From Candidatus Bathyarchaeia archaeon (GTDB lineage: Archaea; Thermoproteota; Bathyarchaeia; 40CM-2-53-6): a DNA stretch of 64,000 nucleotides. Numbering within the stretch: position 1 is the stretch's first letter; each line of letters starts with the position of its first letter. The translations under genes were made by a program, and so were the position numbers. Below, piece after piece: positions 2,974-3,919 of the stretch. The DNA is taken from the NCBI GenBank assembly GCA_050013255.1, contig JBEKFP010000003.1, forward strand, positions 218,483 through 282,482, in the 5' to 3' direction. The notes beneath the pieces were generated by a model. The model was not told the origin of the DNA. It saw only the letters and a list, made by a program, of their open reading frames with translations, and ran no database searches.

Positions 2974-3019
2974 GTGTGTGATACTAGTGGTGCGACCGTC
3001 GTAATTTGAACCGTCGTTC
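2974..3019. repeat. Cassette junction J1: GTGTGTG | ATACTAGTGGTGCG | N11-TTGAAC (tRNA-3'-like target)
   Basis: 14-mer at 2981-2994; TTGAAC at tRNA T-loop spacing; followed by CCGTCGTTC. Confidence 0.85.
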
Positions 3020-3030
3020 AGGTCGTCCTT

Positions 3031-3071
3031 GTGTGTGTGGTATCAGTGGTGCGAGCACCCAAATTTGAACC
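3031..3071. repeat. Cassette junction J2: GTGTGTGTG | GTATCAGTGGTGCG | N11-TTGAAC
   Basis: 14-mer at 3040-3053. Confidence 0.85.
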
Positions 3072-3087
3072 ACCAGACATAAGGGGG

Positions 3088-3759
3088 CTATGGGAGTGTG
3101 ATGCCGAATACACCTACGGCTCCTCGTATGAGGAATGAGATGCCAATGGCTCCCATAAGTATGTCCATGACTTTTCCAGTTATTACCATGACTGATGGCT
3201 TCAGGACTTTCATGAGTCTACTGCTCAAACTGAACAGTAACCAAACGATCACGCAGTCAACCACAATCGCGACTGCCATGCTGAAATCCATCCACCCCTT
3301 CGCGGCTCCATACTGAGGATTGTTGAGTACCATAACTGTCGCAATCGCCCCTGGTCCAGCCAATAGTGGAATAGCCAACGGGAAAACGGCTATACTGTCA
3401 GTAACGCCACTTGACAGGGTGCGCCCCCTCCTCCTGTATAGGGATTTGGCCGCGCTCTGGACTTCGGATGAGGCGACATCTTTGACCGCGAAGACGAGAA
3501 TGAATACGCCTCCCGCGATCATCACGGAATTGAGAGTGATTTGGAGGGCGCCTAGGATTGCGTCGCCCAAGTACGCGAACACCAACAGTACCGCTATGGC
3601 GACTGTAATCGTCTTCCTGGCAATCGCAGCCTTCCGTTCCCCTGTGGCCCCAGCTGTAAGCCCCTGAAAGAACGGAATAACCCCGAGTGGGTTTAGGATG
3701 ACGAATAGTGTAATCAGGGATTCGGTAAGGTCCTGCAGAAAGCCGGTCGAGAATGACAA
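3088..3759 (-). CDS. marC: MarC family membrane protein (sole gene between J2 and J3)
   Basis: LFVILNPLG, IAGG, AVFPLAIPLLAGPGAIATV motifs. Confidence 0.9.
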   Translation of the reverse strand: MSFSTGFLQDLTESLITLFVILNPLGVIPFFQGLTAGATGERKAAIARKTITVAIAVLLVFAYLGDAILGALQITLNSVMIAGGVFILVFAVKDVASSEVQSAAKSLYRRRGRTLSSGVTDSIAVFPLAIPLLAGPGAIATVMVLNNPQYGAAKGWMDFSMAVAIVVDCVIVWLLFSLSSRLMKVLKPSVMVITGKVMDILMGAIGISFLIRGAVGVFGITLP

Positions 3760-3801
3760 AACGTCAACACGCCTACCGTAATGCGCTCGGGGCTACCTAA
3801 A

Positions 3802-3857
3802 TGTGTGTGTAGGTAGTGATGGTGCGGGCGCCGTAAATTGAACCGTCGTTCGTCGTC
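3802..3857. repeat. Cassette junction J3: TGTGTGTGTAG | GTAGTGATGGTGCG | N11-TTGAAC
   Basis: 14-mer at 3813-3826. Confidence 0.85.
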
Positions 3858-3864
3858 AAAAAAA

Positions 3865-3919
3865 TGTGTGTGTGGGTCTTATGGTGCGAGCATCGCAAAT
3901 TGAACCGTCGTCGTTCGTC
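3865..3919. repeat. Cassette junction J4: TGTGTGTGTG | GGTCTTATGGTGCG | N11-TTGAAC
   Basis: 14-mer at 3875-3888. Confidence 0.85.

Follow-up and report, generated by a model that had tools for sequence, protein, structure and literature searches.

The window, a stretch of 64,000 nucleotides from the genome of a Candidatus Bathyarchaeia archaeon (G000:C3:218483-282482, G000 being the genome under study), carries a solo Cas1 gene, a composite element around it, cargo genes such as marC, a real tRNA-Gly gene and a series of junctions numbered J1 to J14 (Table 1). At several of these junctions a 14-bp target segment lies beside a leader containing GTTCAA, a unit referred to below as a pad, and the ends of the cassettes are marked by short GT-repeat tips. 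The small cassettes are probably moved by the CRISPR-related Cas1. In agreement with a preliminary description of this DNA, TTGAAC starts exactly 11 nt past TGGTGCG at 2988, 3047, 3820, 3882 and 20569 (J1-J4 and J13), and these five matches in the window compare with a mean of 0.00 in 100 shuffles. Genome-wide, 32 matches occur at spacing 11, two of them real tRNA ends, and 0-1 at any other spacing scanned from 5 to 17. The distances within close pairs given earlier were also correct (J1-J2 59 bp, J3-J4 62 bp, J11-J12 57 bp, J13-J14 43 bp). An assembly artefact was ruled out, as the stretch 2877-4234 (J1-J5) is spanned with zero differences by independent peat-metagenome contigs from other studies; matching DNA is present in peat and wetland metagenomes.

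Table 1. Features of the array and its surroundings, in positions of the window.
Feature	Positions	Strand	Remarks
End tip (GT repeat), EamA-gene unit	2974-2980	+	In congener G014 the same EamA end adjoins another 14-mer
J1 pad: 14-bp target segment 2981-2994 and leader	2981-3011	-	GTTCAA at 3006-3011, minus strand
CGTCGT-type spacer and tip, element end containing J1 pad	3012-3039	+	Homologous ends at several other loci
J2 pad: 14-mer and leader	3040-3070	-	No tip nearby
marC / NAAT-family transporter	3088-3759	-	Cargo between J2 pad and tip 3803-3812; Pfam PF01914, TIGR00427
End tip, marC unit	3803-3812	+	
J3 pad: 14-mer and leader	3813-3843	-	Two variable bases differ in sister strain
Spacer and tip, end containing J3 pad	3844-3874	+	Different target joined in sister-strain contig L161
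J4 pad: 14-mer and leader	3875-3905	-	
Longer pad-bearing end, atypical tip (J4-J5 end)	3906-3964	+	Twice in G017 (L075, L085), opposite side of target
J5: first of three identical 14-bp duplication copies	3965-3978	-	Others 9583-9596, 20562-20575
Casposase-bearing composite element, GC-rich terminal inverted repeats	9597-20561		J10/J13 duplication flanks; inner end 18623-18639
Solo Cas1 (casposase), 404 aa	12697-13911	+	PF01867; one of two full-length genome copies
J11, tip, spacer, J12: pad-bearing end of TPR cassette	18640-18710	+	GTCCGA-type (tRNA-Gly-like) leader
J13 pad: leader-adjacent copy of triple duplication	20562-20592	-	
J14: 27-bp att-like copy, tRNA-Gly 3' end and flank	20605-20631	-	26/27 identical
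Real tRNA-Gly gene, intron-containing	22825-22919	-	Unoccupied here; ARAGORN, Rfam

The register of the pads matches exactly that of casposase targets tested in other archaea. The A. boonei casposase requires TCAAATC at -15 to -9, 8 bp upstream of the 14-bp duplicated segment (PMC6614799), and the M. mazei enzyme requires a 14-mer that begins with CGCA, together with C at -2 and the bases 12-17 upstream (PMC6977970). In a position table of 132 pads, TCAA occupies -15 to -12, T stands at -10, C at -2 and CGCA at +1. The T-loop-like leader at -15 to -9, a trait of family 2-type targets, is present with T replacing C at -9 in 87% of pads. The bases between the two motifs, described earlier as differing between sites, are not free and follow a consensus, this T being accompanied by G at -3 (97%) and C at -2 (89%). 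As to a dependence of integration on leader and core bases, there is a weak trend, seen after the fact, for the empty state to be commoner among imperfect pads (odds ratio 3.4, p=0.049). The seven variable bases of the 14-mer are themselves biased, with C at +14 in 82% and G at +11 in 55%, which may reflect descent or a preference of the enzyme on the far side.

Identical pairs of 14-mers recur around candidate elements of this genome, with 14 pairs found against 1.3 by shuffling, and the wrong polarity, in which the leader copy comes first, was seen in 0 of 73 pairs. In relatives, where 40 loci limited to 20 kb were compared, the duplication signal is weaker, at 9 against 2.4 with a shuffle maximum of 9 and with five wrong-polarity pairs. 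Duplications of 13 or 15 bp were considered and set aside in favour of 14 bp, which suits both the pairs beginning with C and CA-tip parity; at this length the GC-rich ends are one base out. The leader adjoins only the last copy of the 14-mer present in triplicate, an arrangement that would be expected from two successive insertions at J13.

The candidate enzyme is closest, among PDB entries, to the M. mazei casposase 6OPM (E 8e-77, residues 4-395), the next Cas1 following at 2e-22. A second casposase gene, at C1:1333438, encodes a protein 60% identical to the window copy, and a search for related loci with this Cas1 returned one locus only; the one named relative of this Cas1 comes from a Bathyarchaeota MAG. 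The casposase gene of the window lies 9 kb from the sites. Within the composite element, the inverted repeat at 9597-9613 is paired both with 20546-20562 and with 18623-18639, and exact 14-bp duplications are found at both cas1 elements of the genome. The solo Cas1 has the C-terminal extension of the casposase type, as in family 2 casposons, and, in identical contigs, the ORF at 11918-12415 matches PF13392 and so supplies an HNH nuclease gene. No PolB gene was found near cas1; the three PolB genes of the genome all lie on contig C2 and adjoin neither cas1. The system thus works like a family 2 casposon and is not filed as one, full membership being withheld because it has no PolB of its own.

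Several further observations concern these elements and their ends. In the window, a TIR-domain gene (13913-14677) starts one base past cas1, and a 45-bp tandem repeat of about five to six copies lies inside the cas1 element at 11571-11871. The second casposase element (C1:1330273-1346549; L004, L005) is 16.3 kb long, with CA-type inverted ends and an exact duplication, and its cargo includes an AIPR gene, a DNA methylase and a DndB-like protein. In congener G017, 11 casposase-like matches were found, intact and broken, some only 41-42% identical to the window copy. A third type of end (TATCCCC or similar), which resembles the published ends of A. boonei and M. mazei, is joined to the same targets as the CA-type and GC-type ends (C1:254429, C1:716097 and C2:744705 in G000; L081:10357; L113:12591). 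In addition, a stretch just upstream of the leader is conserved at C1:1346563, C1:1352974, L092:10619 and L109:15743, two of which are occupied by cas1-bearing elements.

About half of the pads lie close to a cassette end. A GT tip follows the leader at no more than 45 nt in 20/41 non-tRNA pads of this genome and in 65/120 of the relatives, compared with backgrounds of 1.0% and 2.3%, respectively, an enrichment of about 25- to 50-fold; at real tRNA ends no such tip was found, and the other half of the pads have none nearby. The tip is separated from the leader by 7-30 nt of a recurring CGTCGT-type, GACGAC-rich repeat, so that the pad-bearing ends form a family. These tips are joined to other targets on both sides, 16 on the leader side and 50 on the far side, which identifies them as true ends. 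Pads also lie just inside an end of clean, duplication-flanked elements (C1:42256-37906, C1:1357169-1355403, C1:1324030-1330266, L108 and L113). Furthermore, four end-borne pads, at C1:37906, C1:259497, C1:679360 and C2:287254, have been used, since both 14-bp copies are kept there. Through this enrichment, the joins on both sides, the duplication-flanked elements and the four used pads, comparison with other loci and genomes supports the earlier proposal that cassette ends deliver casposase targets, with three qualifications: tip pads are mostly already occupied, only 10/85 being empty; real tRNA-Gly genes still serve as targets in some relatives; and dependence on GTTCAA is known from another casposase.

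The related claim that the mimic lies just inside the next element end applies cleanly to J1 and J3, which are 19 and 22 nt from their tips. J4 is 48 nt from an atypical tip, J13 lies beside a decayed tip, the next tip after J2 is about 730 nt off with marC intervening, and the pad of J12, of GTCCGA type, is shifted by one base from the register. The J1 pad is occupied, and its partner copy was not found; its 14-mer recurs to the right, at 36753, where it sits within an ORF with neither tip nor leader and was taken as chance. The TPR cassette, which runs from 18654, has a paralogue at C1:1352968-1354441 in which the pad-bearing end is the same and the flanking 14-mer differs.

The reading favoured here, with good though not full confidence, is that the sites are casposase landing pads carried in the ends of non-autonomous cassettes, and that an element which lands in such a pad may later move with the outer tip, taking the pad along. 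In a first step, shown for other casposases, Cas1 would read the T-loop-like leader and CGCA and join the element ends 14 bp apart, so that the 14-mer is duplicated and the leader-adjacent copy remains usable. One class of ends has the layout tip, 7-30 nt spacer, leader and 14-mer, pointing inward; as the paired duplications show, elements land in these end-borne pads and become nested within the host cassette. The newcomer would thereby gain a second usable tip 45-90 bp further out, and by moving with this outer tip it would take along the pad and anything between pad and tip (marC at J2), leaving the other duplication copy behind. Repetition would leave unmatched 14-mers in closely paired and chained sites (J1-J2, J3-J4-J5), and would seed targets at loci without a tRNA gene; Cas1 would be supplied in trans from either casposase gene.

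Such end capture predicts short chains with differing heptamers and orphan inner 14-mers, and it would explain why the cas1 element ends at 9597 and 18639 both adjoin the CGCACCA side. The variable 7 nt are shared in 0/8 chains of this genome and in 2/30 of the relatives, and 71/75 occupied tip pads have no partner duplication. Orphan 14-mers could also be given by deletion or recombination between junction cores, and M. mazei casposons are able to excise with an empty site remaining (PMC10359463); for these two reasons the capture step is not proven. Separately, at L075:846-866, L074:7066 and L085:9082, pads joined head to head, or junctions just 9-10 nt of CA repeat apart, and a tandem of the whole pad-tip unit were observed, which are possible excision footprints. 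A stronger version of the favoured reading, self-seeding Cas1-driven gene capture, would make the pad-bearing ends a selected, self-spreading module that recruits and then travels with incoming elements, so that leaders multiply across the genome and whole genes are gathered by the chemistry of CRISPR adaptation; it is offered tentatively, and we lean against it at present.

The best-surviving alternative, improbable on balance, is that the pads are real casposase targets of an incidental kind, namely hotspot secondary sites beside leftover solo ends, shuffled mainly by host recombination or deletion between similar junctions and not carried by transposition. In its favour, M. mazei is known to have solo ends and targets outside tRNA genes (PMC4779613), most junctions here are orphan, and most contigs from these peat systems show no change in the array. 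No empty allele of J1, J2 or J3 was found among the contigs compared. Contig L161, which counts towards the favoured reading, is 99.9% identical to G000 up to 3888, but the tip following J3 is joined to another target. A 2.3-kb insert with an exact 14-bp duplication lies there beside a leader matching the non-tRNA pad C1:630738, which in G000 is without this insert, and a decayed pad with its tip forms the end of the insert. Contigs of two other studies share both base changes in J3, so the sister strain is real; the long-range join, seen in one contig, may instead have arisen, as the incidental reading would have it, when the J3 end crossed over with a relative of 80% identity at C1:630803. 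Against incidental targets, the spacer between tip and leader is homologous between loci and genomes (CGTC-type repeat start at 43/85 tip pads vs 12/81 other pads), and pad-bearing ends, which are joined in either orientation, occur within elements that have clean flanking duplications.

Some observations were set aside. Contig joints that seemed to skip cassettes had sides of 20-33 bases derived from repeats at other loci; L166, in which EamA-marC has other left neighbours, switches at the EamA start to a G014-like flank and is probably a chimera formed via an EamA paralogue; and a single match in a viral contig was set aside as it has no end tip.

Subterminal binding sites are common in transposons, and GTTCAA within the ends might be such a site, bound by the casposase for end recognition, with the target look a by-product. 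The inward motif is present in 22/126 ends, and 10 of these have no intact CGCACCA at the proper distance, as this explanation would allow. Several of the 10 exceptions resemble decayed pads, however, and about 104/126 ends are without the motif, those of both casposase-bearing elements among them, so it is not a general end-binding site; the A. boonei casposase moreover needs just the last five end bases (PMC6614799). End recognition is accordingly judged very unlikely as the role of the motif.

Equally doubtful is the view that the sites are ordinary att remnants, that is, tRNA 3' fragments duplicated by elements with a tyrosine integrase. It does hold for J14, listed earlier among the paired sites, which is an exact tRNA-Gly 3' end without GTTCAA and is an ordinary att remnant. 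J12 looks like a tRNA-Gly end that has decayed, tRNA genes lie close to several of the clusters, and the origin of J13 is ambiguous on its sequence. Measured against the nearest of 28 host tRNA-like 3' ends, mismatches in 16 positions number 4 at J1, 6 at J2, 3 at J3, 6 at J4, 2 at J13 and 0 at J14, so that J1-J4 are not exact tRNA 3' ends, a finding that would have spoken against the earlier proposal had it been made. At -9, where pads mostly have T, all ten real tRNA ends scored have C, and pads differ from each other by a mean of 1.4 in 9 nt compared with 4.1 between pads and tRNAs. For these reasons J1-J4 do not appear to be tRNA remnants, and the att explanation is largely refuted there. 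In keeping with earlier expectations, T-stem pairing is absent (Watson-Crick pairs average 1.0/5 over 164 pads), and ARAGORN and Rfam call only 22825-22919 as a tRNA. The likeness drawn to that tRNA-Gly extends to the spacing and breaks down at the loop, which is GTCCGA there; GTTCAA is found in the loop of another tRNA-Gly, at C1:1132501. Least credible of all is an integron-like site-specific recombinase, not Cas1, crossing within the TGGTGCG core with pads as attI-like sites: the core of 7 nt does not vary, many of the variable heptamers are unmatched and the cassettes are the size of genes, all of which would suit it, but the junction layout is accounted for by tips and duplications, one end occurs with different heptamers and on either core side, which a fixed circle junction would not yield, both cas1 elements are flanked by exact 14-bp duplications, and a Pfam scan of the 20 ORFs of 602-24669 returned neither a tyrosine recombinase nor an integron integrase.

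If the sites are casposase landing pads, their ancestry can be considered from a second pad class with a GTCCGA loop (J12, L119, L120 and L156), which suggests descent from captured tRNA-Gly ends. Pads probably derive from captured tRNA 3' ends of Gly or Leu type in which only the bases read by the enzyme were retained. Of three sites in relatives read as GTCCGA tRNA-Gly, two are clearly occupied, and others with a GTCCGA loop are occupied too; GTTCAA is therefore not strictly required, and dependence on it has been established solely for another casposase (PMC6614799). The continued use of tRNA-Gly genes in some relatives indicates that tRNAs are dispensable as targets and not avoided. The GTCCGA-loop pads are located at 18640-18710 in the window and at L119:1247, L120:5833 and L156:1618-3067, with the loop as in the neighbouring tRNA-Gly; L156 holds seven junctions in 1.5 kb, among them one chain of three. 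Beside J14, 27-bp repeats of the tRNA-Gly 3' end enclose a 2.2-kb block (20605-22844) with an ArsR-type HTH gene, an AHSA1 gene and a third ORF, in which no integrase was seen.

The pattern of tip, 14-mer and leader was found in 19/22 congeners and a few other genera, compared with 0 matches for the reversed control, and a stricter pattern in 15/301 genomes of the class, all of the same order. Close casposase homologues occur in 16/61 genomes and are absent from some pad-carrying genomes, several of which have no casposase at E<=1e-30. Distant marC homologues are mostly without junctions, so marC is ordinary cargo.

Among characterized systems, the A. boonei casposon shares the T-loop leader at -15 to -9 from a 14-bp duplicated segment and polar insertion beside the leader; it targets one real tRNA gene, whereas about 40 non-tRNA pads are present per genome here, and element ends contain half of these. 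Methanosarcina family 2 casposons, to which the nearest solved Cas1 (6OPM) belongs, share the 14-bp duplication starting with CGCA, C at -2, intergenic and tRNA-Leu targets, tandem reuse of one site and solo ends, and an engineered mini-casposon without Cas1 was mobilized in trans in that system; in contrast, theirs encode PolB, have C-rich tips and form tandems of two. The accessible parts of these reports describe neither targets inside ends nor nested cassette arrays for Methanosarcina casposons (PMC4779613, PMC6977970, PMC10359463). Element 3' ends are G here, compared with C in both A. boonei and M. mazei. Published work already describes solo ends, intergenic targets and the tandem reuse of a target. 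No description of end-borne casposase targets was found in the openly accessible casposon literature covered, which includes work since 2021.

The nearest logic is found with other enzymes, in the accretion and cis-mobilization of ICE, IME and CIME elements and in the supply of a site for the CTX phage by the TLC satellite phage. In the former, a newcomer uses the resident's site and the composite moves whole, capturing genes, but a tyrosine integrase acts at att sites that are exact gene ends, with no target duplication and no separate pad in the end (PMC5704250). In the latter, one element provides another's landing site by correcting dif, but a single chromosomal site is served by host Xer recombinases and an existing site is repaired rather than new ones dispersed (PMC6744903). 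A parallel between casposons and integron or CRISPR leader-repeat arrays was drawn in PMC5137440. The leaders described here are many and mobile rather than one and fixed, and the inserts have ends of their own. CRISPR arrays grow by polar addition beside a leader with duplication of the repeat, and in integrons gene-sized cassettes each bring a site.

Published casposons use one or a few host-supplied sites, and here the elements appear to bring their own. With element-borne sites, arrays would no longer need tRNA genes to grow, which may explain how roughly 20 cassette clusters came about in one genome. The more than 160 natural pads provide a map of the target bases a casposase needs (leader, -3G, -2C and 14-mer) and suggest that a T-stem hairpin is not needed, a question that PMC5137440 had not settled. 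They also offer a testable route to a leader-repeat unit detached from its tRNA gene, a step required in the casposon-to-CRISPR scenario; if self-seeding capture is true, the system, with its mobile leader, would stand as a living link from casposons to the arrays of CRISPR or integrons. The design suggested is one of serial, site-specific DNA stacking.

A few minor observations concern repeated sequences of the window. The MauJ-like cassette at 6593-7450 has a paralogue at C1:720236 (88%), and the TPR cassette at 18640-20115 one at C1:1352968 (79%). A dispersed repeat of about 270 bp at 1279-1555 has at least six other copies in the genome, at 69-89% identity.
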